A DNA stretch of 32,000 nt from Schaalia odontolytica (GCF_005696695.1 NZ_CP040006.1:780001-812000); one strand, 5' to 3'. Shown: positions 425 through 30,661, numbered from the stretch's first letter. The notes: generated from the sequence alone by a model not told the origin. Program-made: numbers and translations.

Positions 425-602
425 CTGTCGTGAGAGTTGGGCATAGGCGGGCAGGGGAGTGGTTACTTGAAATTCGTGCCTCTGGCCAGGTGTTGACCAA
501 TTTAAGTGACGCTAAATTGTGGCGAGTGACAAACTAAAGCATGATAGTTCTGATGGGTACATTGTCGTACTCGCCAGACCCACAACTGAAAGTCGAGGAA
601 CC

Positions 603-3600: not shown

Positions 3601-4937
3601 TCTACATGCCGCCGAAGCTGCGCGGCACGCTCTCCGTGTCCGCCCTGCAGCTTCCCGAGGGTGCCGACCCTGCCACCGGCGTGCTCGAGCCGGCCTCCTG
3701 GTCGAACTGGGGTGCGAACAGCATCGACTTCGCCGCCCCCGGCGCGAAGATCTACGCGCCGCTGACGAGCTGGTACGGCAAGGCCTACGGCAACCTGTAC
3801 GGCACCTCGCAGGCCTCGCCTCTGGCAGCCGCCGTCATCGCGACGCTGCGCCAGGTCCACCCGGAGATGAATGCCGAGCAGATCATCGCCCTGGCCAAGA
3901 AGCAGGCGGGGGATCCGTCGAACTGGGATCGTCTCAAGCCCGTCGAGGGCCGCGAGTACCGAGGCGCGGGCCTGCCCAACGCCCTGGACGCCGTCCTTAA
4001 GGACCAGGCGAAGCCCGTCATCGGCAGCGTCGAATACTCCACCGATGGCACCACGTGGCAGCCGCTGGCGGGGGAGAGCGTCGCCGGACGCGTCTCCATC
4101 CGCGTGACGGTGAGCGGTCCGGTGACCTCCGCGCGTCTCCTCGTCGGTGAGCGTGAAGTCGTGACCGGCGTGGGCAACGGCGCCTTCGAGGGCAACTCGG
4201 TGATGCTGCAGGCCGACGGCGTGGACGTGTCCCACCCGAACGGCACGGGACGCTTCGCGGGCGCCGCGACGGTCACGGTCGAGGCCATGGGCCGCAACAA
4301 CGACTCGCGGGCCGACGACGATGCGACGCTCCAGGTTCCCTTCACGGTCAGCCCCGACCAGGTCGGCCCCGACGAGGCCCGCTCGGGCCGCTGGGTCTCC
4401 GGCGCCTTCGGCTGGTGGTGGCGCTACGAGGACGGTACCTACCCGACCTCGACGCAGCTGCGCATCGACGGGGCGATCTACCGCTTCGACGCCCGCGGGT
4501 ACATGGTGACCGGCTGGGTCAGCGAGGGCGGCCACTGGTTCTACTACGGACCCTCCGGCGGCCAGGCCTCTGGCTGGATGCAGGTGCGCGGAACCTGGTA
4601 CTACCTGGATCCCATCAGTGGCGAGATGGCGAGTGGTTGGACCAAGGTGCGCGACACCTGGTACTACCTGGGTTCCTCGGGCGCGATGCGCACGGGATGG
4701 ATGCGCGACGGCTCCACCTGGTACTACCTGTCCGACTCCGGCGCGATGACCACAGGCTGGGCACGCATCGGATCCTCCTGGTACCACTTCGCCACCTCCG
4801 GCGCGATGAGCACCGGCTGGGTGAAGGACGGCGGCTCCTGGTTCTACCTCTCCTCCTCCGGGGCGATGGTGACCGGGGCGCGCTGGATCGACGGCACGCG
4901 CTACGTGTTCGACGACGAGGGTCGCCTCCAGGAGTAA
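603..4937 (+). CDS. Secreted tandem (two-module) subtilisin-like serine protease, peptidase S8, with C-terminal cell-wall-binding repeats
   Basis: Start chosen at ATG 603 (MRRNVARIGLVAALALSMGVATATAPPTRA, a signal peptide), preceded by gaggaa. Module 1 has an I9-like propeptide (NYAINL...YPELGTFFAQS...SVGPTR) and catalytic motifs VIDTGID (Asp codon 1221-1223), HGTHVAG (His 1344-1346) and GTSMATPH (Ser 1959-1961). A Pro/Ala linker follows, then a second propeptide-like segment (NYAVNL...YPAFGTFFVQS...SIGPTR). Module 2 has IMDQSID (Asp 3066-3068), HGTHVAG (His 3192-3194), AAGNFS and GTSQASP (Ser 3807-3809). The C-terminus carries GW..G.WYYL..SGAM.TGW repeats. Confidence 0.93.
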   Translation: MRRNVARIGLVAALALSMGVATATAPPTRADDRTGLIAPARASAGLMNYAINLSPQASAEDLARATSLVASAGGVTLASYPELGTFFAQSESASFAPDLAAALGKAGISVHSVGPTRVAAVPEGERQAAPDPQPAPQSGEASPAQSGAQSGAQSGAQSGGPSSLRGQSATEADKPEEVVNWGAQAMSATDAAAVPIAHAPVTVGVIDTGIDDTHPDLVGRVDTSRSVSCGHNGIPSQAYGSWRDDYFHGTHVAGIIAANHNGIGIDGIAPTATLVSIKASNDEQLMYPEYVTCGFMWAASHGVDIVNNSYSMDPWVYWSPSDPEQAAGLEAATRAIAYAQGKGLAVIASAGNDGMDNDNVTTDSGSPTDLDTPIKDRPVKDGVKVPAMVEGVSQVSAATRTNVETKPEWANLKRADFSNYGKSVDFTAPGQDIYSTVPTSIFSSGYAKTSGTSMATPHITGIAALIKSIHPGFQGKQITDLMRKQAAMEYTRLEAPEDGKEFRGYGFINALTTMRRDQPQPTVQTLQYRVGKGEWKDVHGATLPAGPVTFYTEAIAPISHLHMDVAGLASVDRDGSGKFFDSALGASIENVDLSALLPEGTDSVTARVQVSATGINFDRQADDDTGREAVFTVSRDPNAAATPAPAPDTDAPAPSGPAKAGITAPARSNDQLPANYAVNLPKGTDNATFQRAAAQASFHGGLLLAQYPAFGTFFVQSASPTFSPDLGAALVKEGISYDSIGPTRQAPVGGNEAMVPISYETRVAADAAIAAAPRSQGAQSDQDAALTPDPQTGNGWHLQALRALEAQGVDVMRAPVTVGIMDQSIDDTVPDLVGQVDHDKSVSCSFNGIPNRDPAAWRWDDATHGTHVAGSIAAKHDGVGVDGVNPTLRIAAINVASRNGGFFYPEYIVCGFVWAAEHGISVTNGSYYVDPWKYWLPNDPEQAAGQEAVQRAVDYATSKDVINVVAAGNFSTDLDNLPTTDDSAPGDTWGAHERDVTGAVYMPPKLRGTLSVSALQLPEGADPATGVLEPASWSNWGANSIDFAAPGAKIYAPLTSWYGKAYGNLYGTSQASPLAAAVIATLRQVHPEMNAEQIIALAKKQAGDPSNWDRLKPVEGREYRGAGLPNALDAVLKDQAKPVIGSVEYSTDGTTWQPLAGESVAGRVSIRVTVSGPVTSARLLVGEREVVTGVGNGAFEGNSVMLQADGVDVSHPNGTGRFAGAATVTVEAMGRNNDSRADDDATLQVPFTVSPDQVGPDEARSGRWVSGAFGWWWRYEDGTYPTSTQLRIDGAIYRFDARGYMVTGWVSEGGHWFYYGPSGGQASGWMQVRGTWYYLDPISGEMASGWTKVRDTWYYLGSSGAMRTGWMRDGSTWYYLSDSGAMTTGWARIGSSWYHFATSGAMSTGWVKDGGSWFYLSSSGAMVTGARWIDGTRYVFDDEGRLQE
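1032..1079 (+). repeat. 12-nt x4 imperfect coding microrepeat, (AQSG)4
   Basis: The sequence reads gct cag tcc gga / gcc cag tcg ggc / gct caa tcc gga / gcg cag tcg ggt. It lies in the linker between propeptide 1 and catalytic domain 1. Confidence 0.9.
4387..4934 (+). repeat. Array of ~60-nt coding repeats (cell-wall-binding repeats) at the 3' end of the tandem protease gene
   Basis: The translated repeats are GWVSEGGHWFYYGPSGGQASGW / MQVRGTWYYLDPISGEMASGW / TKVRDTWYYLGSSGAMRTGW / MRDGSTWYYLSDSGAMTTGW / ARIGSSWYHFATSGAMSTGW / VKDGGSWFYLSSSGAMVTG. Confidence 0.9.
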
Positions 4938-4975: not shown

Positions 4976-5011
4976 GAGGGGCCGCGCACGATGTCTCGTG
5001 CGCGGCCCCTC
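4976..5011 (+). terminator. Stem-loop terminator downstream of the tandem protease gene
   Basis: A perfect 16-bp GC-rich stem, gaggggccgcgcacga (4976-4991) / tcgtgcgcggcccctc (4996-5011), with loop tgtc. It starts 39 nt after the stop codon. Confidence 0.65.
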
Positions 5012-5077
5012 GCATGTGTGGGGAGGGTGTTTTCCGAGTTGGATCGCCATTATGAATTCGATAGTGTAAAGCGACAA

Positions 5078-5099
5078 TTTCGTATACGATATTCGTATG
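5078..5099 (+). promoter_or_regulatory. Candidate operator for the RHH antitoxin (direct repeats plus palindrome)
   Basis: TTCGTAT occurs twice (5079-5085 and 5092-5098), and the second copy overlaps the ATG at 5097. The palindrome tcgtatacga lies at 5080-5089. The region is AT-rich and sits immediately 5' of the antitoxin gene. RHH antitoxins typically autoregulate through such repeats. Confidence 0.3.
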
Positions 5100-5366
5100 A
5101 GTGAGCGTCTTCTTCATGGAAAGCCCGTCAGCGATGAACAGATTCAGGCGTGGGCTGATGAGGCTGAGCGCGGCTATGACCTGACCAAGCTGGCGCCCCC
5201 GCGTCCGGGCCGTCCTTCCGTCGGGAAGGGGCCGGGAGTGGCCGTCACGGTGCGTTTGGACGAGCAGACGCTCAGCGCGCTGATGGAACGTGCTGCTTCT
5301 GAGGGGATCGATAGCCGTTCCGACGCGATACGTGCTGCGGTGCGTGAGTGGACCCATGTCGCCTAA
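5097..5366 (+). CDS. Ribbon-helix-helix (CopG/BrnA-like) type II antitoxin
   Basis: 89 aa. The C-terminal segment VAVTVRLDEQTLSALMERAASEGIDSRSDAIRAAVREW fits the RHH pattern (beta strand, helix, helix). Its 3' end overlaps the next ORF by 11 nt (ATGTCGCCTAA). Confidence 0.75.
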   Translation: MSERLLHGKPVSDEQIQAWADEAERGYDLTKLAPPRPGRPSVGKGPGVAVTVRLDEQTLSALMERAASEGIDSRSDAIRAAVREWTHVA

Positions 5367-5616
5367 ACTGCACGCCAGTGCACGCAAGCATTTTGGGCGC
5401 GACCGGCTCACCGATGAGTCCGTCCTGTATGCCTATGAGCATGCCCTGAACTCTCGACCCCTCGATGATGAGGATGACCCCAGGCGGTGGCTCGTGGTGG
5501 GTATTGATCAATCTGGACGCGTTCTGGAAATGGTCGTCTTGGTTTTTGACAGTGGCGGTGAACTCCTGATTCATGCGATGAAGGCACGTCCGCAATTTCT
5601 AGAGGAACTTCGATAG
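5356..5616 (+). CDS. Small putative toxin partner (BrnT/DUF4258-like pattern; family uncertain)
   Basis: 86 aa starting at the internal ATG 5356 (MSPKLHASARKHFGRDRLTDE...RWLVVGIDQSGRVLEMVVLVFDSGGELLIHAMKARPQF). Size, overlap with the RHH gene, and the R.L.vG.D..GR.LevV....viHAM..R pattern resemble small RNase-type toxins. The assignment rests on pattern only. Confidence 0.55.
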   Translation: MSPKLHASARKHFGRDRLTDESVLYAYEHALNSRPLDDEDDPRRWLVVGIDQSGRVLEMVVLVFDSGGELLIHAMKARPQFLEELR

Positions 5617-5662
5617 TCCCTTTCTCGCAGCCTCTTGGCGCGAGAATGCCTTTAATGAACGT

Positions 5663-5705
5663 GGCTGCCCTCCGACCTGCACAAGGGGGCGATCGGAGGA
5701 CAGCC
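5663..5705. terminator. Possible bidirectional stem-loop between convergent genes
   Basis: Arms ggctgccctccga (5663-5675) and tcggaggacagcc (5693-5705) form a 13-bp stem with one mismatch and a 17-nt loop. It lies between the toxin stop (5616) and the membrane protein stop (5725). Confidence 0.3.
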
Positions 5706-5724
5706 GCGCAAAAATGCCGCTTCG

Positions 5725-6762
5725 CTACCTTTCTCTGGCGGACGTGAAGCCCGCCTTCTCGGGCGTTGTGCCCAGGCGTGCGGCGATCAGCTCCTTGTCC
5801 TCATCGGAGGCGAGGTCACGGACCCACGAGGCGTAGGTGGCCTCGTCGGCGTGGACCTCCTGCGTGAGCGGGTTACGCCGCTTGGAGACGATCGTGCGCA
5901 CGTGCGCCGCGAACACCCACACGTTCGCCACGAGGGCGGCCGCCGAGAGGATGACCATCGCCCAGGGGTTGTGGGCGCTGCGGTGGGCGAACATCGAATC
6001 CTGCATGAAATGCGGGAACGTGAGCACGACGGCCGACCACAGCGTGAGCGTGTACGCCCGGTACTGGATCCACGCGCCTCGCCCGAACTTCATGAGCGCC
6101 GGGATCGTGCACGAGGCCAGTAGCGCCACGCCCGAGTACCACGCCCGGTCCGCCAGGCAGTTGTACACGTAGGCGAGGTTCCACAGGTCGTAGGCGATGA
6201 TCCACCCGATCGTCAGGTCACCCCAGATGAGGGAGCGTTCCTTGCCTTTGGACATGAAGATCCCGACCCACCCGGAGATGGCGAGCAGGTTCAAGATGCC
6301 GGCAATGCCGTTCATGATGTTCCACGGCCCGCCCCACGTGACCATCCCCTGCGAGGGATCCACCCCGTGAATCCCGTAGCACTGGAAGTCGCGCACCACG
6401 GCCTCGGCGATGTTCACCGCCAGGATCGCGGGTGGGATGATCAGGTACCAGCGGTTGTAGCGCAGCCTCGGGAAGACTTGCAGGGCGACGAGGCACAGGG
6501 ACCCCGCCAGCGCCGAGTACTGTTTCACGATCGGGAACCAGCCCGCCGAGGCCGTCCCCGCCGTCGAGTGCGGCCACCAGAAGATGGTCAGCGCGATGGG
6601 CACGACCACGAAGAGCGCGAGGACCACCCACATGTTGCGCTGGGCCAGCCACGCCCCGCCGGCGAGGAGCACGATGACGAGGAGGAGCATCGCGTAGTCC
6701 CACCACTGGCCGACCTCGAAAAAGAAGAGCGTCGGGTAGTCCGGGGGAGTGACGGTGCCCAT
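5725..6762 (-). CDS. Uncharacterised polytopic membrane protein (~9 TM)
   Basis: Start taken at the internal ATG 6762 (MGTVTPPDYPTLFFFEVGQWW...), which overlaps the upstream stop as TGATG. About nine hydrophobic segments are visible. Conserved blocks are shared with the 7973-9247 paralog: LIWGDLTIGWIIAYDLWNLAYVYNCLADRAWY vs LIWVDMVWPWVIAYDLWNHAFLYNSLADYTWY. The track ORF extends to 7584 only by running through the upstream gene in another frame. Confidence 0.8.
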   Translation of the reverse strand: MGTVTPPDYPTLFFFEVGQWWDYAMLLLVIVLLAGGAWLAQRNMWVVLALFVVVPIALTIFWWPHSTAGTASAGWFPIVKQYSALAGSLCLVALQVFPRLRYNRWYLIIPPAILAVNIAEAVVRDFQCYGIHGVDPSQGMVTWGGPWNIMNGIAGILNLLAISGWVGIFMSKGKERSLIWGDLTIGWIIAYDLWNLAYVYNCLADRAWYSGVALLASCTIPALMKFGRGAWIQYRAYTLTLWSAVVLTFPHFMQDSMFAHRSAHNPWAMVILSAAALVANVWVFAAHVRTIVSKRRNPLTQEVHADEATYASWVRDLASDEDKELIAARLGTTPEKAGFTSARER

Positions 6763-9247: not shown

Positions 9248-9494
9248 GTAGGCGACAAAACGGAGCCGTCAGTGGTTTGCGGGCCAGATGCTCCTCGCGT
9301 GGTGTGGGATGTGTGGGGGAGGGGGTGGTCCTCGCTGAGGCGCCATCCTCTCCACTTCTTCACCAAAAGGTCAAGAATTCTTAAATTGTGAAACTCTCTA
9401 GGAGGTTGTTGACAAACCTTGAGACGATGGAGCAATGGCGTGCCATCCGGAAAGCCCCGGAGACGCGTCCCCATCTGTACAGAAACGAGGAACA

Positions 9495-11933
9495 ATGATG
9501 CATCAACGCTCATGGAAGACCCTCATCGCGGGAGGCGCGGCGCTCGCTGTCGGCGTCACGCTCACCGCGTTCGGCGCCCCCGCCCACGCGGCGGGCGTCC
9601 CGGGGATCACCTCCGAGGCTCGCGCCCAGGACGAGGTCATGAACTACGCGGTCAACCTGACCGCCGACGCCTCCCACTACGACTTCAACGCGGCCGTCTC
9701 CAAGGCCTCGGAAAATGGTGTGGTCCTGGCCCAGTACCCCGAATTCAACACCTTCTTCGTCCAGTCGGTGAAGGCCTCCTTCGCCCCGACGCTCGGCAAG
9801 AGCCTCGTCGACGCCGGCATCTCCTACCAGTCGATCGGCCCCACCCGCTACAAGACGGTCACTGGCTCCGAGGTGCGCACCGAGCAGCCGCAGACCACCG
9901 CGTCCGAGGCCAACGCCGTCGCTGACGCCGCGGGCACCCGCTCGACCGGCCTGTCCGCCGACTCCCAGCTCAACGACTTCACCCCCGACGAGGGCGACGC
10001 CAACGCCTGGGGCCTGGCCGCCGTCGGCGCGCTCGAGGCCCAGCAGGTCGACGTCCCCCTCGAGAACGTGACTGTCGGCGTCATGGACACCGGCATCGAC
10101 CCCGACCACAAGGACCTCAAGGAGCACCTGGACGCTTCGCGTTCCGTGGGCTGCCAGATCAACGGCATCCCCAGCCAGAACCCCGCGGACTGGAAGGATG
10201 ACCACTACCACGGCACGCACGTCGCCGGCACTATCGCCGCCGCGCACAACGCCTATGGCGTGGACGGCGTGGCCCCCAGCGCGACCATCGTCGCGATCAA
10301 GACCTCGAACGAGGCCGGCTCCTTCTACCCCGAGTATGTGGCCTGCGCCTTCGACTGGGCTGCCGAGCACGACATCGACGTGACGAACTCCAGCTACTAC
10401 ATGGACCCCTACGCCTTCTGGATGCCCACCGAGGGCTCCCAGGCCGCGGGCCTTGAGGCTGCCTCGCGCGCGATCCGCTACGCGAAGAACCACGGCGTCG
10501 TCAACATCGCCGCCGAGGGTAACGACAACGACGACCACGACAACCCGACGATCGACAAGGCCTCGCCGAACGACGTCGAGGGCGCCGCGGTCGAGCGCAA
10601 CGTGGCCGGCGGCATTGACGTGCCCGCCATGGTCAACGACTCGGTCGTCTCCGTGGCCGCCGTCGCCCTGCCCACCGGTACCGACCCGGCCACGGCCAAG
10701 TTCGAGCGTTCCAAGTTCTCCAACTACGGCAAGACCTCCGTGGACGTGGCCGCCCCCGGCTCGCGCATCTGGTCGACCCTGCCGACCTGGAAGAAGGATC
10801 CGCCTTTCGGTTACCTGTCGGGTACCTCAATGGCTTCCCCGCACGCTGCGGGCGTCGCCGCGCTGATTAAGCAGATCCACCCGGACTACACGCCCGACCA
10901 GACGATCGCCCTGCTCAAGAAGCAGGCTGGCTACACCTACGACCGCCTCGCTGCGCCCGAGGATGGTAAGGAATACCGCGGCGCCGGCCTCGTCAACGCC
11001 CTGGCCGCAGTCCTCAAGGACCAGCCGCAGCCCGTCCTCGGCAGCCTTGAGTACTCCCACGACGGTGCCACCGACTGGCGTCCGCTGGCCGATGCGTCTG
11101 TCTCCGGTACCGTCTACGTGCGCACCACGGTCTCCGGCCCCGTCACCAAGGCCTCCCTGAAGGTCGGCGACAAGGAAGCCGTGACCGGCACCGGCACGGG
11201 CGCCTTCGAGGGGAACGAGGTCACGCTCGTGGCCGGCCCCTACAACGCCACCGACCTGATCGGCGACGCCCCCCATGTGGACGTCACGGTTGTCGCCGAG
11301 GGGCGCAACAAGGATTCCCGCGCCGATGACGACGTCAAGGACTCGATTCACTTCCGCGTGGATGAATCCCTGCGCGATGGCGGCGCCTGGACCAACAGCA
11401 CCGATGGCTGGAAGTACTGCTACAACGACGGCTACTGCGCCCGCAGCAAGTACATCGAGATTGACGGCGCCACCTACTACTTCAACGGCGACGCCGTGAT
11501 GGCGACCGGCTGGGTCACCTTCGATGCCGCGTGGCACTGGATGACTCCGTCCGGCCGCATGGCGACGGGCTGGGCCAACGTGGGTGGCACCTGGTACTAC
11601 CTCGATCCCGCCACCGGCGCGATGGCCACCGGCTGGGTTGACGTCGACGGCTCCTGGTACTACCTGAACGCCTCGGGCGCGATGGCGACCGGCTGGGTCA
11701 ACGTGGACGGTTACTGGTACTACCTGACCGGCAACGGCTCCATGGCCACCGGCTGGACCGCCGTCAACGGCAAGTGGTACTACCTGACCGGCAACGGCGC
11801 GATGGCGATCGGCTGGGTCAACGACGGCGGCACCTGGTACTACCTTGACGCCTCCGGCAAGATGGTGACCGGCTGGGTCTCCATCGATGGCACGCGCTAC
11901 CACTTCGCGCCCTCCGGCGCGTGGCTCGGCTGA
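9495..11933 (+). CDS. Secreted subtilisin-like serine protease (peptidase S8) with I9-like propeptide and cell-wall-binding repeats
   Basis: Start at ATG 9495 (MMHQRSWKTLIAGGAALAVGVTLTAFGAPAHA, a signal peptide), preceded by gaggaa. Propeptide: NYAVNL...YPEFNTFFVQS...SIGPTR. Catalytic motifs: VMDTGID, HGTHVAG, AAEGND, GTSMASPH. A beta-rich domain closely resembles module 2 of 603-4937 (SLEYSHDG..VRTTVSGPVTKASLKVG..GRNKDSRADDD). The C-terminus has GW..V.G.WYYL..(N/S)GAMATGW repeats. Confidence 0.93.
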   Translation: MMHQRSWKTLIAGGAALAVGVTLTAFGAPAHAAGVPGITSEARAQDEVMNYAVNLTADASHYDFNAAVSKASENGVVLAQYPEFNTFFVQSVKASFAPTLGKSLVDAGISYQSIGPTRYKTVTGSEVRTEQPQTTASEANAVADAAGTRSTGLSADSQLNDFTPDEGDANAWGLAAVGALEAQQVDVPLENVTVGVMDTGIDPDHKDLKEHLDASRSVGCQINGIPSQNPADWKDDHYHGTHVAGTIAAAHNAYGVDGVAPSATIVAIKTSNEAGSFYPEYVACAFDWAAEHDIDVTNSSYYMDPYAFWMPTEGSQAAGLEAASRAIRYAKNHGVVNIAAEGNDNDDHDNPTIDKASPNDVEGAAVERNVAGGIDVPAMVNDSVVSVAAVALPTGTDPATAKFERSKFSNYGKTSVDVAAPGSRIWSTLPTWKKDPPFGYLSGTSMASPHAAGVAALIKQIHPDYTPDQTIALLKKQAGYTYDRLAAPEDGKEYRGAGLVNALAAVLKDQPQPVLGSLEYSHDGATDWRPLADASVSGTVYVRTTVSGPVTKASLKVGDKEAVTGTGTGAFEGNEVTLVAGPYNATDLIGDAPHVDVTVVAEGRNKDSRADDDVKDSIHFRVDESLRDGGAWTNSTDGWKYCYNDGYCARSKYIEIDGATYYFNGDAVMATGWVTFDAAWHWMTPSGRMATGWANVGGTWYYLDPATGAMATGWVDVDGSWYYLNASGAMATGWVNVDGYWYYLTGNGSMATGWTAVNGKWYYLTGNGAMAIGWVNDGGTWYYLDASGKMVTGWVSIDGTRYHFAPSGAWLG
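11385..11930 (+). repeat. Array of ~60-nt coding repeats (cell-wall-binding repeats) at the 3' end of the protease gene
   Basis: The translated repeats are GWANVGGTWYYLDPATGAMATGW / VDVDGSWYYLNASGAMATGW / VNVDGYWYYLTGNGSMATGW / TAVNGKWYYLTGNGAMAIGW / VNDGGTWYYLDASGKMVTGW. Confidence 0.9.
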
Positions 11934-12125: not shown

Positions 12126-13523
12126 TCAGCCCAGGGAGTCGAAGAGGACCTGCAGGCCCTCGCCCATGGTCGGGTGCGCGATCGGCAGGAAGCGCAGCTG
12201 CTCGTAGGTCAGGCCGCCAGCCATGGCGACGTGCACGGCAGTGATGACCTCGGAGACGTTCGGGCCGATCAGCGTGGCGCCCAGGATCTGGTGCGTGTTC
12301 GCATCCACGACGGCCTTCCAGAAGCCCTCGCCCGCGTAGCGCATCGTCTTGGCGCGCGGAATCGCGGCCGTGGGAACCTTGGCGATACGCACGTCCAGGC
12401 CGGCCTCGCGGGCCTCGCCCTCGGACAGGCCGATGCGCGCCAGCTCGGGGGTGGCGAACACGGCGTAGGGGATCGTGCGGCCCTTCGTGGTGGTGGTCGC
12501 ATCGTCCAGGGACGCGCCGGTCAGCTGCGCGCGGATGATGCGGAAGTCCGACCAGGACGCGTGCGTGAACATGGGGGTGCCCGCGCAGTCGCCGGCCGCC
12601 CACACGCCCTCAGCGGAGGTGCGCAGGTGCTCATCCACCGCGACGAAACCACGATCGGTGAGTTCAACCCCGGCCTCGTCCAGGCCGATGCCGTCCGTGT
12701 TGGGCACGCGACCCACGGCCACCAGGACCGCCTCGGCGGACACCGTCGAGCCGTCGGAGAGCGTCAGGGTCGTCGTGTTGCCCTCGCGCGAGGCAGACTC
12801 AGCGCGGCCGGGCACGATGCGCACGCCGGCGGCTTCCAGGCCCGCCTCGACGACGCGGGCGGCGTCCTCGTCCTCGCGAGGCAGCACGTGATCACCCGAA
12901 GAGATAAGCGTGACGTCCACGCCGAACGTCGCCATCATCGACGCGAACTCCACGCCGATGTAGCTGGCGCCGATGATCGCCAGGGAGGAGGGGAGCTCCT
13001 CGAGACGCAGGATCTCCTCGTTCGTCCACGCGCCGGACTCCCACAGGCCCGGGATCGCGGGACGCGCCGGGCGCGAACCGAGGTTGATGAGGACGCGCTC
13101 ACCACGAATCGTGCGCTCGCCGCCGTCTTCCAGCGCGATGGTGACCGTGCGCTCGCCCGTGAAACGAGCCTCGCCACGGATGAAGTCCAGGCCGGGGGCT
13201 GCGAACATCTTCTCGTGCGCGCCGACCATGGCGCCGACGATGCCCTCCTTGTGGGCGCGGAGCTTGGCCAGGTCCACGCGCGCGCCCTCGGTGCCGACGA
13301 TGCCGAACGCCTCGTCCGTGCGGGCGTCACTGAGGCGACGAGCCGAGTTGACCAGCGACTTCGTGGGGATGCAGGCGACATTGATGCAGGTGCCGCCGAC
13401 GAACTGGCGCTCCACCATGGCGACCTTCCAGCCCGCCTTCGCGCGCTCCATCGCGAGGGACTTTCCGGCCTTGCCGCCGCCGACAACCAGCAGGTCGACG
13501 TTCTCGATTGCGTTCGTGGACAT
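12126..13523 (-). CDS. Class I FAD-dependent pyridine nucleotide-disulfide oxidoreductase (RclA/MerA-like)
   Basis: FAD-binding motif DLLVVGGGKAGKS, redox-active disulfide GGTCINVACIPTK, NAD(P) site LAIIGASYIGVEFA, and a C-terminal dimerisation domain ending in HPTMGEGL. Confidence 0.9.
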   Translation of the reverse strand: MSTNAIENVDLLVVGGGKAGKSLAMERAKAGWKVAMVERQFVGGTCINVACIPTKSLVNSARRLSDARTDEAFGIVGTEGARVDLAKLRAHKEGIVGAMVGAHEKMFAAPGLDFIRGEARFTGERTVTIALEDGGERTIRGERVLINLGSRPARPAIPGLWESGAWTNEEILRLEELPSSLAIIGASYIGVEFASMMATFGVDVTLISSGDHVLPREDEDAARVVEAGLEAAGVRIVPGRAESASREGNTTTLTLSDGSTVSAEAVLVAVGRVPNTDGIGLDEAGVELTDRGFVAVDEHLRTSAEGVWAAGDCAGTPMFTHASWSDFRIIRAQLTGASLDDATTTTKGRTIPYAVFATPELARIGLSEGEAREAGLDVRIAKVPTAAIPRAKTMRYAGEGFWKAVVDANTHQILGATLIGPNVSEVITAVHVAMAGGLTYEQLRFLPIAHPTMGEGLQVLFDSLG

Positions 13524-13723
13524 GTTTCTCCTTGGGTAGTAAAGGGTTACCTATCTCAACGCTCCGTGCCTGGATCTATTCCAACAGGTGGTCAATCATC
13601 GGGTGCGTATTATCACGTTGAAACGGCCATATGACGCTCGTTTGGCGGGTGTAAAGAAACGAAGGCTCACATAGTGATCGTGCCGTTCGTTCAAACCCCC
13701 TTCGGCATGCTTAGATTAGGGGT

Positions 13724-13978
13724 ATGAGGGCTCTAGAAATTGGTGATTTCAAAGAGGATGTGGGGGCCGCTCTGGCGCGCGCCTCATCCGGTGAAGTCGT
13801 CACGCTCACTGAGGAAGGTCAGCCCGTTGCCGAGCTGGGTCCCGTGCGCATGTCGACCTACGCGCAGTTGCGCGAACTGGGCCTCGAGCGCCCCGCTATG
13901 GCGGACCTCGACGCTTACCAGATGCCGTCCAAGAACCTGCCCGACGGGCGGGGGATCGTCGGCAAACTGGACGATTGA
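13724..13978 (+). CDS. Phd/YefM-like (prevent-host-death family) antitoxin, apparently orphan
   Basis: 84 aa. MRALEIGDFKEDVGAALARASSGEVVTLTEEGQPVAELGPV fits the Phd/YefM N-terminal pattern (..GE.V.lT..G.PVA.L.P). No toxin ORF can fit in the 26 nt before the convergent hrpB stop. Confidence 0.55.
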   Translation: MRALEIGDFKEDVGAALARASSGEVVTLTEEGQPVAELGPVRMSTYAQLRELGLERPAMADLDAYQMPSKNLPDGRGIVGKLDD

Positions 13979-14004
13979 TCGCCCGGCGCAGGGGGAGCGG
14001 ACAG

Positions 14005-26559: not shown

Positions 26560-26871
26560 TGGGGGATCCTTCCTCGTGGGTGCTGTCCAGCCCAGGTTAT
26601 GACTGGGTCCGAGGTCCCAGCGGCCGTTTTTGTTCAGACAAGATAGGTGGGTGTGATTTTTTGGCTTTTTCGTGCGGAAAAATCGCCACACGTAATCAAC
26701 GAAAATTGGCCTCTCATTGGGCGTTTTAGGACCTTCGAGGCGCGACTTAGCTCAGGGTGAGTTTTCGTTTTTCAGTTTTGCGATGGTTTCGTGTGCACAA
26801 GAGGTCGCCCGGCCTCGAAAATGGACGAGGTTGGGGCGCGGTGGAGAGGACGAGTGGGAGGTCCCTGGGGC

Positions 26872-27420
26872 TCAGGAGTAGCCGAGGGCGGTGAACACGA
26901 GAAGGTGACAATCTTCCGACATGGCCAGCGCTTGGATGTCCATGGGACCGAAATCGTGTGGGATCTTCTCTTTATCCGGCGCGAGGGCCTTATCCGCGAA
27001 CTCCGGGTCGATCGTGGTGAACTGGCATCCCTGCGGCACGTACTCGTAGAGATCGGGATAGATGCCGGGCAGGAGCGTGTCGGTGGCTGCGCCCTCCGCG
27101 AGGAGCTGGATCGTCTCATCGGGGACAGCGGCAACGGCGGTGAGCCAGAATTCGGGGTCCTTGTCGGGAAGGAAGCCTGTTTGGCTGGAATAAGCGATGG
27201 TGAGGTGCGCTTCGCTTGCCTCCATGTTTGGCCAACGTAGGTTCACGGAGTCCGTCTGATCCTTGATGGTCGGCTCCTTATCGCTTTGGAAGACGAACTC
27301 CGCAAAGCGTGGATCCTTCGGGTACTGAGGAGCCGAAGACTTGTGTGCGAACGGGTTGCACGCGGCAGCGAGCGCCACGACCGCGAGTAGGGGCACGATG
27401 GTCTTGAGTGCGAGCTTCAT
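26872..27420 (-). CDS. Predicted lipoprotein, paralog 1 of 3 (unknown family)
   Basis: MKLALKTIVPLLAVVALAAAC has a lipobox-like L-A-A-A-C. It shares blocks with the other two: CNPFA..., DPRF.EFVF, LRWP, PEFW(L/I)TAVA.VPDETI, LLPGIYP.LYEYVP..CQFTTID, and DC/NC-HL(L/V)V.TALG. Confidence 0.75.
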   Translation of the reverse strand: MKLALKTIVPLLAVVALAAACNPFAHKSSAPQYPKDPRFAEFVFQSDKEPTIKDQTDSVNLRWPNMEASEAHLTIAYSSQTGFLPDKDPEFWLTAVAAVPDETIQLLAEGAATDTLLPGIYPDLYEYVPQGCQFTTIDPEFADKALAPDKEKIPHDFGPMDIQALAMSEDCHLLVFTALGYS

Positions 27421-27452
27421 GAGCGTCTTTCGGTCGCTGGTCGGTGGGGGAA

Positions 27453-28007
27453 TTAGGGGCGGCCGATCGCTGTGAGGACGAGCAGCTGGCAGTCCTTGGA
27501 CACCGCTATAGCGCTGATGGGCAGGGTTCTGAAATCCTTATTTCCCTTGCCTTTCTCGGGTGGGAGAATGGCGTTGGCGTGATCGGGGTTGATCGTCGAG
27601 AAGTGGCAGTTCTCGGGCACGAACTTGTGGAGCCGCGGATTGATTCCGGGCAGAACGCTCGCGTCCCCGGTTGCTCCTTCCATGAGGGTGTCGATCGTCG
27701 TGGTGGGGACGGTGGCGACTCCGGTCAACCAGTATTCGGGATCCTGCTCGAGGGAGTGGAGGATTCCCGAATGGGTGCGAGCGGCGACCACGTTGCCGTT
27801 GGTTGCTTGCATTCCCGGCCAACGCTCGTTGAACGAGTCGAGGCGTGTCTGCACCTTCGTCTTACGGTCGCTCGTGTAGGTAAACGGGGCGAAGCGTGGG
27901 TCCTGCAAGCCGTTCGAGCGGGAATTACCCTGCGCGAACGGGTTGCACGCGGTGGCGAGAGCCGCGACCGCGAGTAGGGGCACGATGGTCTTGAGGGGGA
28001 GCTTCAT
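27453..28007 (-). CDS. Predicted lipoprotein, paralog 2 of 3 (most divergent)
   Basis: MKLPLKTIVPLLAVAALATAC followed by NPFAQ. It has the same block order as paralogs 1 and 3, with many substitutions (DPRFAPFTY, ERWPGM, PEYWLTGVATVP, LPGINPRLHKFVPENCHFSTIN, DCQLLVLTAIG). Confidence 0.75.
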   Translation of the reverse strand: MKLPLKTIVPLLAVAALATACNPFAQGNSRSNGLQDPRFAPFTYTSDRKTKVQTRLDSFNERWPGMQATNGNVVAARTHSGILHSLEQDPEYWLTGVATVPTTTIDTLMEGATGDASVLPGINPRLHKFVPENCHFSTINPDHANAILPPEKGKGNKDFRTLPISAIAVSKDCQLLVLTAIGRP

Positions 28008-28112
28008 GGCTTTCCTTGGCTGGTCCTTTGGACTGTCATTGACGAGACCGGGGTGAGGGGCGTCAACGCGGTGCTTGAGAGCGTGTCTTGGCAGTTACGA
28101 CCATGCAACTGC

Positions 28113-28694
28113 TCACTGGGATTGGCCAGGATACGAAGGGGGAGTGTACTCATGCCCGAGCGCTGTCATCACGACCAGATGACAGTTCTTTGACACCGCA
28201 AAACCGGTGATTGGGATTGGGGTGAAGCCTTTCGTGGCCTTATCGATGTCTATCCCGAGGCGATCGTCGGCAAATTTGGCGTCGATGGTTGTGAACTGGC
28301 AGTCCTGAGGGACGTATTCATAGAGACCGGGGTAGATCCCGGGCAAGAGAGAGGTGTCGCCGATGTTGTTGTCAACCAGCTGAGTGATTGTCTCGTCCGG
28401 GACGGTCGCGACAGCGGTGATCCAAAACTCTGGTTCCGTCTGCGGAATACCAAAACCCGAACGAGAGTATTCGACCGTGATGTGGGCTTCAGAAGCTGCC
28501 AGCCCCGGCCAACGGAGGTTAAGTGAATCGACGCGCGTTTGGATCTTAGGTTCTTCATTAAAGTCGAAGACGAACTCAGAGAAACGCGGATCCTTCGGGT
28601 ACTGAGGAGCCGTCTTGTGTGCGAAGGGGTTGCACGCTGCCGTGAGAGCCACCGCGACGAGGATCGGGAGGATGAGTTGACGTATGGACTTCAC
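28113..28694 (-). CDS. Predicted lipoprotein, paralog 3 of 3
   Basis: GTG start at 28694, 3 nt after the upstream stop. MKSIRQLILPILVAVALTAAC followed by NPFAHKTAPQYPKDPRFSEFVF. It is close to paralog 1 and has a C-terminal EYTPPSYPGQSQ tail. Confidence 0.72.
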   Translation of the reverse strand: MKSIRQLILPILVAVALTAACNPFAHKTAPQYPKDPRFSEFVFDFNEEPKIQTRVDSLNLRWPGLAASEAHITVEYSRSGFGIPQTEPEFWITAVATVPDETITQLVDNNIGDTSLLPGIYPGLYEYVPQDCQFTTIDAKFADDRLGIDIDKATKGFTPIPITGFAVSKNCHLVVMTALGHEYTPPSYPGQSQ

Positions 28695-28697
28695 CCG

Positions 28698-29060
28698 TCA
28701 CACCCCGATGTGCGCGCAGACATACACATACTGTCCGCAGACCGCGACGCGGGTCGGGTAGCTGCTAATGCCGAGATAGGTCGGCAGGTCGGGACCGGTC
28801 ATCCAGCGCTGGCCTGCGAGGTGTTCAAGGGCCTCGGGAAGCCACAGATCACCCGTGTATTCGCCGGTGCAATTGTCGACGAGGAGGTCACTCCACTCCT
28901 GGTTCACCTCAACGCAGATCACCATGAACCTATCCGATGGAAGTGGAAGATCCGACTCGGACTTTAAAATGACGCGACGGTCAATGACGCGAAAAAACTC
29001 GTGGGTCGGCAGCAGTTCGTCGAGCATCTCCGCTGACATGAGCTGACGGAAACTCACCAT
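28698..29060 (-). CDS. Small cytosolic protein, candidate immunity protein (no recognised family)
   Basis: 120 aa. ATG 29060 is preceded by AAAGGAGG. No signal peptide is present. It sits directly downstream (33 nt) of the putative toxin gene. The assignment rests on position only. Confidence 0.5.
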   Translation of the reverse strand: MVSFRQLMSAEMLDELLPTHEFFRVIDRRVILKSESDLPLPSDRFMVICVEVNQEWSDLLVDNCTGEYTGDLWLPEALEHLAGQRWMTGPDLPTYLGISSYPTRVAVCGQYVYVCAHIGV

Positions 29061-29093
29061 GGGCTGCGGCCTCCTTTCTCGTTCCTGTTTTCT

Positions 29094-30278
29094 TTATCGG
29101 CGACCGTTATTGTCGTAGACCGGCTGAAAAGGTGGTTGTTGGCCGACCTTCCAGGTGTATGTCTTGGTCATGCTCCCACTGGTCTCGAAGCTTTTGGCCC
29201 ATCCGAGTTCCTCGAAACGGCCGTTGACATCATCGCCGAGGCCTGTAATTGAGTCGTGATCGCCCCTGTTGAAGTTCCACTTGTCCCGCGCATGAACGGT
29301 CACGGTCGCGGTGATCGTGTCCCCGTTGACCTGAACGTCGGTGTCGGTGTAGGTGTTGTGGCCGCCGAGTGTCCATCTCCAGTTCGCTGTCTCCGGATAA
29401 TTTCCGGTTGCGCCGAGACTGGTCTGGGGTCCATGGAGCGTGACGCCGGACTGGCCGGCCAAAGCCGCCTCGTTCGCCGCTGCCAGCGCACCATTGAGTT
29501 CTCCGTTGACGTGGTTACGGATACCTGCGTCCTCCTTGTACGCTCTCTCGTAATCGACAGACATGGGCGTGCCGGTGTTGTCGCGGAAATGCGCGTAGCA
29601 CCTCGCTGCGTCGGTCATGCCGAGGCTATATGCGCCGCCGAGGCCGCTCTGTCCCGCCTCCCAGAGGGCATAATCTCCGGCGTTGGCTTGCCCCTTCTTT
29701 GACCCCCAGACGAAATCTTCGTCCCATTTCTGGGTGCGATCGGGCTCGACGGTCGAATAGCCGCCCCATGTCGTGTAAGGCGTCGCTCCCGGTCCGGCCG
29801 TGATTGCAGCCTGCAAATCGTACTGCTCGAAGGCCGAGACCCGCGGGGCCAGGATGTTTCGATACTGAGTCGCCAGGATGAAGAGTCGTCCGATGTCCTT
29901 GGGGCTTGCAAACAGCAGGCGGTTTCGGAGCGGTCGAACACCCCACGTGTCAGTGACGACGAAACCATGGAGCTCGATCTGCTCTACCAGCGTAATAACG
30001 TCGCCCTGAAGGCTCGTCTTGTTCGTGCGATATGTCGTAACGACAGTCTGTAACTCTTCAACCAGCGCGATGTGAGTGTTGATCTGGCTTTCAATCTTCT
30101 GCAGATTGGCGAGGAGCGCGTCGGCGCTCTGGCCCTGCATCGTCTGTGTAATGAGCTCTTTTGCGTGCGCAATATCGTCCAACTTCGCCTGATCCTCGCG
30201 AAGTACCAAATCGCACCTGGCAATCGTGTCCGTGAAGCTGGACAAATCGAGTGCGTAGAGTTCCGTTTTCGTTACCAC
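29094..30278 (-). CDS. Candidate polymorphic toxin: WXG100/LXG-like N-terminal helical domain plus a C-terminal domain of unknown function
   Basis: GTG 30278 is preceded by GAAGGGGGA. The N-terminal ~120 aa is heptad-like helical, with a central MQGQSADALLANLQKI turn resembling the W/L-x-G..A..A loop of WXG100/LXG domains. No signal peptide is present. The C-terminal ~230 aa is Gly/Thr/Asn-rich (...AARCYAHFRDNTG...HARDKWNFNRGDHDSITGLGDDVNGRFEELGWAKSFETSG...) and I could not assign a motif. Confidence 0.6.
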   Translation of the reverse strand: MVTKTELYALDLSSFTDTIARCDLVLREDQAKLDDIAHAKELITQTMQGQSADALLANLQKIESQINTHIALVEELQTVVTTYRTNKTSLQGDVITLVEQIELHGFVVTDTWGVRPLRNRLLFASPKDIGRLFILATQYRNILAPRVSAFEQYDLQAAITAGPGATPYTTWGGYSTVEPDRTQKWDEDFVWGSKKGQANAGDYALWEAGQSGLGGAYSLGMTDAARCYAHFRDNTGTPMSVDYERAYKEDAGIRNHVNGELNGALAAANEAALAGQSGVTLHGPQTSLGATGNYPETANWRWTLGGHNTYTDTDVQVNGDTITATVTVHARDKWNFNRGDHDSITGLGDDVNGRFEELGWAKSFETSGSMTKTYTWKVGQQPPFQPVYDNNGRR

Positions 30279-30562
30279 GAAATGTCCCCCTTCAGGACGG
30301 AGGCAATCGAGTCGGAGATGTCGCGTTCCATGGCTTCGAAGGAATGGAGCGTCTTGAGCATGTTTGCGCGGGTCTTCTTCATCGCTTTCTGGATGCTCTT
30401 TTGTTCCTCATTGATGACCTGGATAGGCTCGCTGATCCGCTGTGCGTAGATGCGGCTGCACGGATCTCCCGCGGGGGGCGTGACCTCTGTGGTGGATGAT
30501 GACCCGTCGAGGTACTGAGCCGCCGTGCGTAAGGCGTCGCTCGAAAAACTCAAGTCCGGCAC
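30272..30562 (-). CDS. Small alpha-helical protein, candidate partner/chaperone of the downstream toxin
   Basis: 96 aa. GTG 30562 lies 6 nt after AAAGGAGA. Its stop overlaps the next start (GTGGTAA, 30272-30278). The C-terminal half is predicted helical (EEQKSIQKAMKKTRANMLKTLHSFEAMERDISDSIASVL). Its size and position match the small helical partners encoded upstream of LXG/WXG effectors. Confidence 0.5.
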   Translation of the reverse strand: MPDLSFSSDALRTAAQYLDGSSSTTEVTPPAGDPCSRIYAQRISEPIQVINEEQKSIQKAMKKTRANMLKTLHSFEAMERDISDSIASVLKGDISW

Positions 30563-30604
30563 TGTCGTCTCCTTTGTCCGTACTTCTGTTAGGAGCCTAC
30601 AAGG

Positions 30605-30643
30605 GGGAGGTCCCGGGAAGCAACTTGCTTCCCGGGACCTCCC
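30605..30643 (-). terminator. Strong stem-loop terminator after the lactate permease gene
   Basis: A perfect 17-bp stem, gggaggtcccgggaagc / gcttcccgggacctccc, with loop aactt. It begins 19 nt downstream of the permease stop (30662) on the minus strand. Confidence 0.7.
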
Positions 30644-30661
30644 GAGCCCATCCGCCGGCGA

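Follow-up and report, generated by a model that had tools for sequence, protein, structure and literature searches.

Why do six genes stand between lctP and lutABC in Schaalia odontolytica, and what do they encode? We addressed this question in a 32,000-nt stretch of the genome (GCF_005696695.1, NZ_CP040006.1:780001-812000; hereafter the window), in which the interval 26692-30661 between lctP and lutABC consists of six co-directional minus-strand open reading frames (ORFs), here called c1 to c6. Homology makes it very likely that this interval is a toxin-immunity locus, and likely that it is a polymorphic locus of the type VII (Esx) kind working by the mechanism proposed below. In this reading c2 is the predicted toxin, c1 its probable secretion partner, c4, c5 and c6 are surface lipoproteins of the partner immunity family, and c3 is a leaderless copy of the same immunity domain.

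c2 carries a putative polymorphic toxin domain

The c2 gene (29094-30278, minus strand; 394 aa) encodes an N-terminal helical domain and a C-terminal domain that we assign as the toxin. Its product is 100% identical to FBF35_03495, recorded as "hypothetical protein" [Schaalia odontolytica], and a literature search on the locus tags found nothing. In an alignment of 26 homologues, conservation was concentrated in the C-terminal half. This predicted toxin domain (29094-29804, minus strand; about 236 aa plus the stop codon) carries D-K-W-N-F-N at 29268-29285, and the family consensus is D-[KR]-[YW]-N-F-[ND]-x-G-x-x-D, in which the aspartate that opens the motif, encoded at 29283-29285 in the window, is invariant.

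A profile of the C-terminal domain was scored against 1.84 billion representative proteins. Of the 790 proteins retrieved at E<=1e-3, 148 reached E<=1e-30. In every carrier the domain lay at the C-terminal end; the carriers were 300-3025 aa long and included RHS-repeat proteins. When 95 carriers were scanned, the families found at the N-terminus were WXG100 (10), LXG (9), WXG100_2 (7), T7SS_signal, EspC, EspA/E and dockerin; 26 of the 95 matched WXG100, LXG or WXG100_2, and one carried the PAAR-like DUF4280. Named carriers came from Lentzea, Propionibacteriaceae, Nocardioidaceae and unclassified Actinomycetes, under record names such as "hypothetical", "WXG100 family type VII secretion target" and "RHS repeat-associated protein". 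No Pfam or NCBIfam model covers the toxin domain itself. Such a spread over delivery modules is a hallmark of a polymorphic toxin module, which is what the homologies of c2 point to. A plasmid search with the toxin domain gave only six weak matches, all annotated as hypothetical, and a plasmid-borne module was rejected on this outcome.

c4, c5 and c6 belong to the family that follows the toxin domain

The c4 (28113-28694; 193 aa), c5 (27453-28007; 184 aa) and c6 (26872-27420; 182 aa) genes, all on the minus strand, encode lipoproteins with the lipoboxes L-T-A-A-C, L-A-T-A-C and L-A-A-A-C, respectively. The three are paralogues (41-59% identical) that share a basic N-terminus, a hydrophobic stretch, the lipobox L-[AT]-[AT]-A-C-N-P-F and two further invariant cysteines in the mature part. 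Their close family comprises 461 members at E<=1e-3; the few named sources are Actinomyces or "Actinomycetes", no member has a Pfam domain, and one cluster is labelled 'lipoprotein' by JGI. A search of the Protein Data Bank (PDB) with the lipoprotein model gave no meaningful match, the top ones being coronavirus receptor-binding domains at a probability of 0.02.

We inspected 84 unrelated toxin-domain loci for the gene right after the toxin, and 80 of them had a readable downstream ORF. In at least 48 of these 80 loci, the gene after the toxin domain encoded a lipoprotein or membrane-anchored protein of 155-200 aa, often overlapping the toxin stop codon by 4 nt. Most of the remaining downstream ORFs were c3-like proteins of 119-120 aa in Schaalia-type contigs, or calls in the wrong frame. 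A hidden Markov model (HMM) built from 32 distant downstream proteins ranked c5 (E 1.8e-7), c4 (E 7.4e-6) and c6 (E 2.5e-3) as the top three of the 167 ORFs in the window, with alignments extending well past the signal peptide. Similarly, hhalign matched the Schaalia lipoproteins to the distant downstream family with E 5.8e-9 and a probability of 95.9% over 153 columns, the controls being clean. On this homology, c4-c6 belong to the family that directly follows the toxin domain in other bacteria. A lactate-related function of the lipoproteins was considered and rejected, as the family is found with the toxin domain across genomic contexts that are otherwise unrelated.

The toxin domain and a small anchored protein also occurred on low-G+C contigs (L121, L142-L144 and L159-L161; third-position G+C of the downstream gene 0.24-0.44), so the pair extends past the high-G+C Actinobacteria.

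c3 is a leaderless copy of the immunity domain

The c3 gene (28698-29060, minus strand; 120 aa) gave only six close relatives in a word-index search, and its family (18 distinct sequences) was built from the loci instead. Compared by hhalign with the distant lipoproteins, the c3 family matched with E 2.4e-8 and a probability of 95.3% over 113 columns, an alignment that takes in c3 from end to end together with the mature portion of the lipoproteins, while reversed and column-shuffled controls gave E>=0.097. The c3 ORF is maximal and has no room for a signal peptide; GAAAGGAGG lies 8 nt ahead of its ATG. Because the profile match spans the whole of c3 and the ORF cannot be extended upstream, c3 is assigned as a leaderless copy of the immunity domain, and we propose that it serves as a cytoplasmic neutraliser or chaperone of the toxin.

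The N-terminal domain of c2 and c1 as proposed type VII export modules

The N-terminal domain of c2 (29805-30278, minus strand; about 157 aa) was modelled as a WXG100/LXG-type helical hairpin with a third helix. In the AlphaFold2 (AF2) model of c2, the mean predicted local distance difference test score (pLDDT) was 82.4, with helices at residues 13-45, 49-102 and 125-155 and an alpha/beta domain at 199-376. In the Foldseek search, the N-terminus matched T. curvata EsxA:EsxB (4lws; target-normalised template modelling (TM) score 0.81) and PE25-PPE41. Against the WxG-bearing N-termini of the distant family, hhalign gave E 6.9e-8 and a probability of 94.6% over 122 columns, compared with E 0.29 for a reversed control, and the turn motif M-Q-G of the window (30132-30140) was aligned onto the W-x-G of these distant relatives. 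Among 120 close homologues the turn read MxG in 83, LxG in 21 and WxG in 11. A profile of the wider family matched S. aureus EsxA (2vs0) with E 2e-4. The model and these alignments lead us to propose that the N-terminus of c2 is a type VII (Esx) targeting domain.

The c1 gene (30272-30562, minus strand; 96 aa) encodes a small, probably helical protein that we infer to be the partner of the toxin, a WXG100/Lap-like targeting factor. Every toxin-bearing locus had a small gene where c1 stands, and all nine aligned c1 homologues keep [F/Y]-x-x-x-[E/Q] close to the C-terminus. This motif is reminiscent of the YxxxD/E signal in mycobacterial substrates. Database searches with the c1 family gave weak matches to WXG100 (E 0.013), EspC (E 0.019), LXG (E 0.047) and PE (E 0.086), each for a single member, and a weak one to T. 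curvata EsxA (4lws; E 0.11). Taken together, c1 is probably a small helical secretion partner of c2. In S. odontolytica F0309 the Esx system is functional, and predicted distal substrates adjoin small genes for WXG100-like hairpins (PMC13622651); by analogy, export of c2 by Esx is probable.

The fold of the toxin domain resembles antibacterial toxins

The top four Foldseek matches of the c2 model were all antibacterial toxins. First came the C-terminal domain (CTD) of the Bacteroides fragilis type VI effector BtpeA (9jdi; E 2.3e-4, probability 1.0, 227 aligned columns, 15% identity), followed by colicin M, pectocin M1 and syringacin M (3da4, 8jc1 and 4fzn; E 0.083-0.13, probability 0.57-0.84). 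The catalytic stretch of colicin M reads D226-K-Y-D-F-N-A-S-T-H-R, with the signature DxYD(x5)HR and the essential residues D226, Y228, D229, H235 and R236 (PMC8469651). On the strength of the fold model, lipid II cleavage is a tentative assignment for the toxin, a lead rather than a result.

The toxin-c3 module and the lipoprotein array vary separately

Across loci, c3 was found only alongside the toxin. Its identity tracked that of the toxin domain closely (r = 0.93, 23 distinct loci), compared with r = 0.59 for the first lipoprotein. L167 opens its array with a lipoprotein 98% identical to the c4 of the window; the toxin domain of that locus is 61%, and its c3 50%, identical to those of the window. 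In the locus with the nearest toxin (L003), the toxin domain and c3 are both 93% identical, and the next lipoprotein is only 45% identical to c4. The c5 protein is conserved at 87-92% in L001-L004, including L004, which lacks the toxin, and c6 at 85-91% in L001, L002 and L004, while the order of lipoprotein types varies between loci. Because c3 tracks the toxin, c4-type identities are mismatched and the order of the lipoproteins differs, we read the toxin-c3 module and the lipoprotein array as recombining independently. Recombination of tandem type VII immunity genes has been described in Firmicutes (PMC9484751).

Two loci contained a second module past their four lipoproteins (L081:10346-11115 and L082:10347-11116), made up of another c1-like gene, whose 97-aa product shares 33% identity with c1, and a 159-aa ORF that matches only the c2-like N-terminal helical domain. 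This module looks like an orphan or displaced toxin module.

The slot between lctP and lutA was filled long ago

We mapped the window proteins onto 80 genomic loci around LutA homologues and also compared loci L081-L084. The lctP gene ends 30-70 nt ahead of lutA in Arcanobacterium (L018, L020), Trueperella (L025), Ancrocorticia (L026), A. urinae (L019) and an Actinomycetaceae metagenome-assembled genome (MAG; L017). Since lctP adjoins lutA in these distant Actinomycetaceae, an uninterrupted lctP-lutABC is the ancestral arrangement by this comparison. The original prediction that the cassette interrupts one unit is borne out by these six loci.

The slot was filled with homologous genes in every sampled Schaalia-clade locus and in some Actinomyces loci, with differing content. 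Four loci (L006, L007, L008 and L028) hold a single lipoprotein gene only; L004 holds two lipoproteins and no toxin, and L002 at least four lipoproteins. The c1-c2-c3 set is accompanied by two lipoproteins in L003, three in the window and L001, and four in L081-L084. In Schaalia meyeri DSM 20733 (L005:6922-9705), the c2 homologue ends at 341 aa, before the conserved NGRFEELGW region, c3 is absent, and the third lipoprotein ORF has just 130 aa and lacks its N-terminal part, so that this locus looks as if it is decaying. An Actinomyces MAG (L012) carries a 37%-identical toxin, c3 and one lipoprotein. In Actinomyces oris (L009:8614-9471), a 285-aa ORF with RCC1-like repeats stands in place of the toxin cassette; accessory genes in general may tend to settle in the lctP-lutA slot.

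Every occupied slot was 6-9 points lower in G+C than its flanks, and LutA was 94-99% identical across loci whose toxins were 43-90% identical. Given this allelic divergence beside conserved flanks and the clade-wide occupation of the slot, the insertion appears to be old and its content to be what varies: the cassette would have entered long ago and diversified quickly since then, with alleles exchanged between the conserved flanks. The cassette is therefore best described as compositionally foreign to its flanks and yet a long-resident hypervariable locus rather than a recent island. The original prediction, an accessory island acquired into a conserved locus, stands as far as its accessory nature and atypical composition go; the acquisition is neither strain-level nor recent. 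The synteny comparison that it had called for likewise gave a divided answer, with lctP and lutA adjacent in the distant Actinomycetaceae and the slot occupied in all sampled Schaalia. Relatives universally carrying the same six genes with native composition, which it had named as the counter-case, were not found: gene number varies, and all occupied slots are low in G+C.

Composition and layout of the cassette

The stop codon of c1 and the start codon of c2 overlap in GTGGTAA (30272-30278), and the later joins from c2 to c6 have gaps of 33, 3, 105 and 32 nt. The ORF list of the interval holds no further plausible gene. G+C content is 58.9% in the interval vs 67.2% in the rest of the window, which makes the cassette the lowest-G+C stretch of 3.97 kb in the window (non-overlapping others: minimum 63.8%, mean 67.3%, standard deviation 1.8%). 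Third-position G+C was 0.66-0.81 in the cassette genes vs 0.83-0.92 in lutABC and lctP. Codon-usage fit to the other window genes (leave-one-out) gave z = -3.0 to -3.9 for c1-c4 and z = -1.8 for c5 and c6, the codon usage of the latter two being near native. Pfam, NCBIfam and PADLOC scans returned no significant match for any of the six proteins, scans of the window found no tRNA and no Rfam match, and the traits of a mobile island were absent at the locus, where we found no mobility genes (integrase, transposase), no tRNA target and no insertion-type flanking direct repeats. An anti-phage defence system was rejected, with no PADLOC match and an unfitting architecture.

These computations reproduce what had been noticed by eye. 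The six co-directional genes with their overlap and gaps, and the hand counts of 30/60, 33/60 and 43/60 G+C, were exact; the lower G+C and atypical codon usage relative to the flanks, the latter in c1-c4, were recovered; none of the six products showed a housekeeping motif in the library scans, and no integrase or transposase was among the ORFs of the interval. The proposed database checks of the six products came out in two ways, as direct library scans were empty and profiles with locus comparison revealed the toxin and the three paralogous lipoproteins, which the first reading had overlooked.

Two more lower-G+C patches (0.58-0.62) appeared in the composition profile of the window, at 5001-6000 and 13251-14000, neither with a tRNA or Rfam family. 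The latter spans the 3' end of a pyridine nucleotide-disulphide oxidoreductase gene (12126-13523) and a gap of about 480 nt up to a helicase gene at 14005. Elsewhere in the window, 519-4937 and 9435-11933 encode two large S8 subtilisin-type proteases with C-terminal choline-binding (cell-wall-binding) repeats, and between the two lie the gene of a DUF5692 protein and an ORF without a Pfam match.

Elements at the edges of the cassette

Just past the lctP stop codon lies a 39-nt perfect palindrome (30605-30643, minus strand) that forms a hairpin with 19-nt arms and a 19-bp stem (free energy -48.4 kcal/mol, z = -4.65). It lacks a U-tract and was not among the calls of the terminator scan. An identical 39-nt palindrome occurs in L001, L002, the toxin-less L004, L155, L157 and L167. 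Because the identical copy also stands 3' of lctP in toxin-less loci, we assign the hairpin to the 3' end of lctP, probably as a 3' end element or terminator that is not part of the cassette. The strong terminator thought to isolate the cassette is thus a real and stable hairpin, but one that lacks a U-tract, went uncalled and belongs to lctP.

A 26-nt direct repeat (26843-26868 and 30592-30617, 77% identity) represents one arm of the lctP hairpin copied just past the c6 stop codon. In other loci the repeat sequence sits after c6-type genes within arrays, which suggests that duplications carried along part of the spacer. An insertion scar was rejected as the origin of the repeat, since in other arrays it is part of the spacer after c6-type genes.

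The longest lutA ORF begins at GTG 26691, and homologues align only from GTG 26568 (VRIALFSTC...). The true start of lutA is probably 26568, which gives a c6-lutA spacer (26569-26871, minus strand) of 303 nt rather than 180 nt, lower in G+C. The spacer before lutA measured 300-370 nt in all occupied loci vs 30-70 nt in relatives without the cassette, and it probably holds the promoter or regulatory region of lutABC since the operon was split. A scan of the interval for sigma-70 promoters and intrinsic terminators found nothing, including in this spacer.

Proposed mechanism and points that weigh against it

One C-terminal domain on varied delivery modules, together with downstream, orphan and tandem immunity genes, is the set of features by which polymorphic toxins are recognised, and each of them was found here. 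We propose that c1 and the WXG100/LXG-type N-terminal domain of c2 would pair as a composite export signal, and that c2 would be exported by Esx machinery with its genes elsewhere in S. odontolytica. In neighbouring cells the C-terminal domain would then be toxic on the outside of the cytoplasmic membrane, where its likeliest chemistry would be a colicin M-like cleavage of lipid II, a lipid-linked precursor of the cell wall. Within the producer, c3, which shares the immunity fold and has no signal peptide, would bind the toxin until export and co-evolve with it, and c4-c6, tethered outside the membrane, would neutralise incoming toxin variants. The lipoprotein repertoire would be reshuffled by recombination and retained even in strains without the toxin. 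Action at the outer face of the membrane is predicted because the partner family is anchored there, and by analogy with TelC/TipC (PMC6193138), TslA/TilA (10.1101/2023.07.29.551094) and colicin M/Cmi (PMC8469651) an extracytoplasmic target is rather likely.

Several observations weigh against this reading. Regarding export, c2 has no Pfam WXG100 or LXG match at E<=1, and its turn is MQG instead of WxG; the similarity of c1 to WXG100-type proteins is below threshold, the rest of its PDB and Pfam output being coiled-coil noise; and no Esx gene lies within the window. Regarding chemistry, the link to colicin M is a weak one at the level of fold (E 0.08-0.13; TM 0.15-0.27, normalised on the full-length query, which lowers TM), and neither colicin M, TelC, BtpeA nor any other solved structure could be linked to the toxin-domain profile by comparison with PDB sequences. 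The stretch D-[KR]-[YW]-N-F-[ND] is, by sequence resemblance, a putative counterpart of the first six residues of the colicin M stretch; compared with the colicin M signature, the aspartate and the aromatic residue are kept, D229 is replaced by N, and the H235-R236 pair is not conserved. For the activity of BtpeA, nothing was found in the literature searched. Regarding immunity, a cytoplasmic antidote such as c3 fits less naturally with a toxin acting solely outside the membrane, and variation in the toxin is not matched by the first lipoprotein, the candidate for a cognate partner. A resemblance of the lipoproteins to Cmi, TipC, TilA or BtpiA was tried and found unsupported, as the lipoprotein model matched no known immunity protein.

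Alternative explanations

The strongest competitor keeps the architecture and changes the target, with the toxin attacking phospholipid, peptidoglycan, teichoic-acid or other polyprenyl-linked intermediates, or membrane integrity. We regard this as a substantial minority possibility. It draws on the weakness of the colicin M matches, which come without the H-R pair of DxYD(x5)HR (PMC8469651), on a best match, the BtpeA CTD, with no activity found in the literature searched, and on the lack of any Pfam match to Colicin_M (PF14859) or DUF3289 in c2 or in the families listed for its 95 relatives; lipoprotein immunity would also suit a lipase, as in TslA/TilA (10.1101/2023.07.29.551094). Lipid II nevertheless retains two arguments, in that colicin M-type enzymes make up three of the four best fold matches, and that D-[KR]-[YW]-N-F-[ND], with its invariant aspartate, mirrors the start of the colicin M motif. 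A larger departure would be a cytoplasmic toxin with c3 as its sole true immunity protein, the lipoproteins having settled in the slot earlier and serving the cell surface in some unrelated way. The much closer tracking of the toxin by c3 than by the first lipoprotein (r = 0.93 vs r = 0.59), the existence of toxin-less lipoprotein loci and the near-native codon usage of c5 and c6 would all agree with it. However, beyond the Schaalia/Actinomyces-type loci it is an anchored protein of the same family that directly follows the toxin, with no c3-like gene, and c3 itself appears to be a leaderless copy of the lipoprotein immunity domain; orphan immunity in non-producers is moreover expected for externally delivered toxins (PMC12258717, PMC9484751). 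We consider this explanation highly improbable.

Only slightly less improbable is a recent accessory island, for which horizontal transfer would have brought lower-G+C foreign DNA into the lctP-lutA slot of this strain or species. Homologous genes in the slot of all sampled Schaalia-clade loci and of the Actinomyces MAG L012, the same G+C deficit in all occupied slots, the near-native codon usage of c5 and c6, and alleles of 43-90% identity beside flanks of 94-99% fit long residence instead, and no integrase, transposase, tRNA or insertion-type flanking direct repeats were found. What the island has in its favour is the composition (58.9% vs 67.2% G+C; codon z -3 to -3.9 for c1-c4) and the adjacency of lctP and lutA in distant Actinomycetaceae; the occurrence of the toxin family across many Actinomycetes and on some low-G+C contigs makes a foreign origin at some point plausible. 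A last proposal is compatible with the toxin-immunity reading and concerns the victim: the main target would be Saccharibacteria (TM7) epibionts, within an Esx anti-epibiont response. The host species is S. odontolytica, and in strain F0309 growth of TM7 is restrained by Esx; TM7 also induces several of the distal clusters of predicted substrates, among them one of seven genes, OBNOAD_00540-00546 (PMC13622651). With c1-c3 and four lipoproteins, the loci L081-L084 likewise comprise seven genes, a possible counterpart of that cluster. However, only four Esx-dependent proteins were detected in the F0309 secretome, all from the main Esx cluster (PMC13622651), and arrays of self-immunity genes together with orphan immunity genes imply that Schaalia cells are exposed and sensitive. 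We hold TM7 as the main target to be unlikely.

Comparison with known systems

The polymorphic type VII toxin-immunity reading places the locus beside several described systems. TelC-TipC of Streptococcus intermedius comprises an LXG type VII toxin that is a lipid II phosphatase and a membrane-anchored extracellular immunity protein (PMC5555719, PMC6193138). Both systems would join a helical WXG/LXG-type N-terminus to a toxin at the C-terminus, encode a small helical partner upstream and display immunity on the outer face of the membrane, with lipid II as the target (here proposed). The present system differs in its actinobacterial host and Esx (T7SSa-type) export, its extra leaderless c3 and its tandem array of three lipoproteins, and neither TelC nor TipC came up among the sequence and fold matches. 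With the colicin M family (ColM, pectocin M1, syringacin M; PF14859) and its structural homologue DUF3289/DUF943 in type VI effectors (PMC8469651, PMC5821083, PMC11148199), c2 shares a tentative fold-level resemblance, a D-K-[YW]-[DN]-F-N stretch, a membrane-anchored extracytoplasmic partner as in Cmi, and the reuse of one domain on several delivery modules. It departs from that family in having no Pfam match, in not keeping H235-R236 and having N in place of D229, in a putative delivery by type VII or RHS modules rather than receptor-mediated import, and in an immunity fold unrelated to Cmi by fold search. The BtpeA CTD, the best fold match of c2, comes from a B. fragilis type VI PAAR effector that is antibacterial and was crystallised with its immunity protein BtpiA (9jdi), and one member of the c2-domain family carries the PAAR-like DUF4280; unlike a homologue, BtpeA shows no sequence-level similarity to c2 (15% identity over the structural alignment), and the lipoprotein model did not match BtpiA.

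Lipoprotein immunity has its parallel in TslA-TilA of Staphylococcus aureus, a type VII lipase toxin with tandem DUF576 immunity lipoproteins (10.1101/2023.07.29.551094). Common to both would be a type VII toxin acting outside the membrane (here proposed), immunity lipoproteins in variable tandem arrays of paralogues, and small helical export partners, whereas in TslA the domains come in reverse order and include a lipase, no cytoplasmic immunity paralogue is present there, and DUF576 was not detected in the cassette proteins by Pfam. By analogy, the closest functional precedent is EsxX of S. aureus, with the compartment-specific immunity of ExiAB and ExiCD (PMC12258717): there, too, the cytoplasmic antidote occurs only with the toxin, as c3 does, and the antidote of the extracellular side is also an orphan in non-producers, as the c4-c6 type is. 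The reshuffling of arrays by paralogue recombination is likewise known from tandem immunity arrays (PMC9484751). In contrast to EsxX, both antidote types here appear to have one fold, whereas ExiAB and ExiCD are unrelated families, and the toxin is no glycine-zipper membrane depolariser. The kind of system is known, while the toxin domain family, the partner immunity family and the leaderless immunity copy are unannotated in the libraries and literature searched. A wider claim, which we offer as speculative, is that a single immunity fold works in two compartments against one toxin, as leaderless c3 and as recombining surface lipoproteins, and that the toxin founds a widespread colicin M-like family that is Esx-delivered in Actinobacteria and maybe TM7-induced.

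Significance

S. odontolytica is a model host of Saccharibacteria epibionts, its own Esx system matters for defence, and before AesA/AesB no Esx effector had been experimentally identified in Actinomycetaceae (preprint, PMC13622651). If the reading is true, c2 would rank among the earliest antibacterial Esx effectors to be defined in Actinomycetaceae, and the locus offers a candidate Esx toxin with a folded, enzymatic-looking domain and a conserved partner immunity family. Its fixed chromosomal address makes it a natural experiment in which toxin-plus, toxin-minus and shuffled arrays can be compared, and the analysis names a large toxin-domain family and an immunity family that public records both list as "hypothetical protein". 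The relation of c3 to c4-c6 also suggests a simple route to compartment-specific immunity, by which an immunity lipoprotein may have lost its signal peptide.

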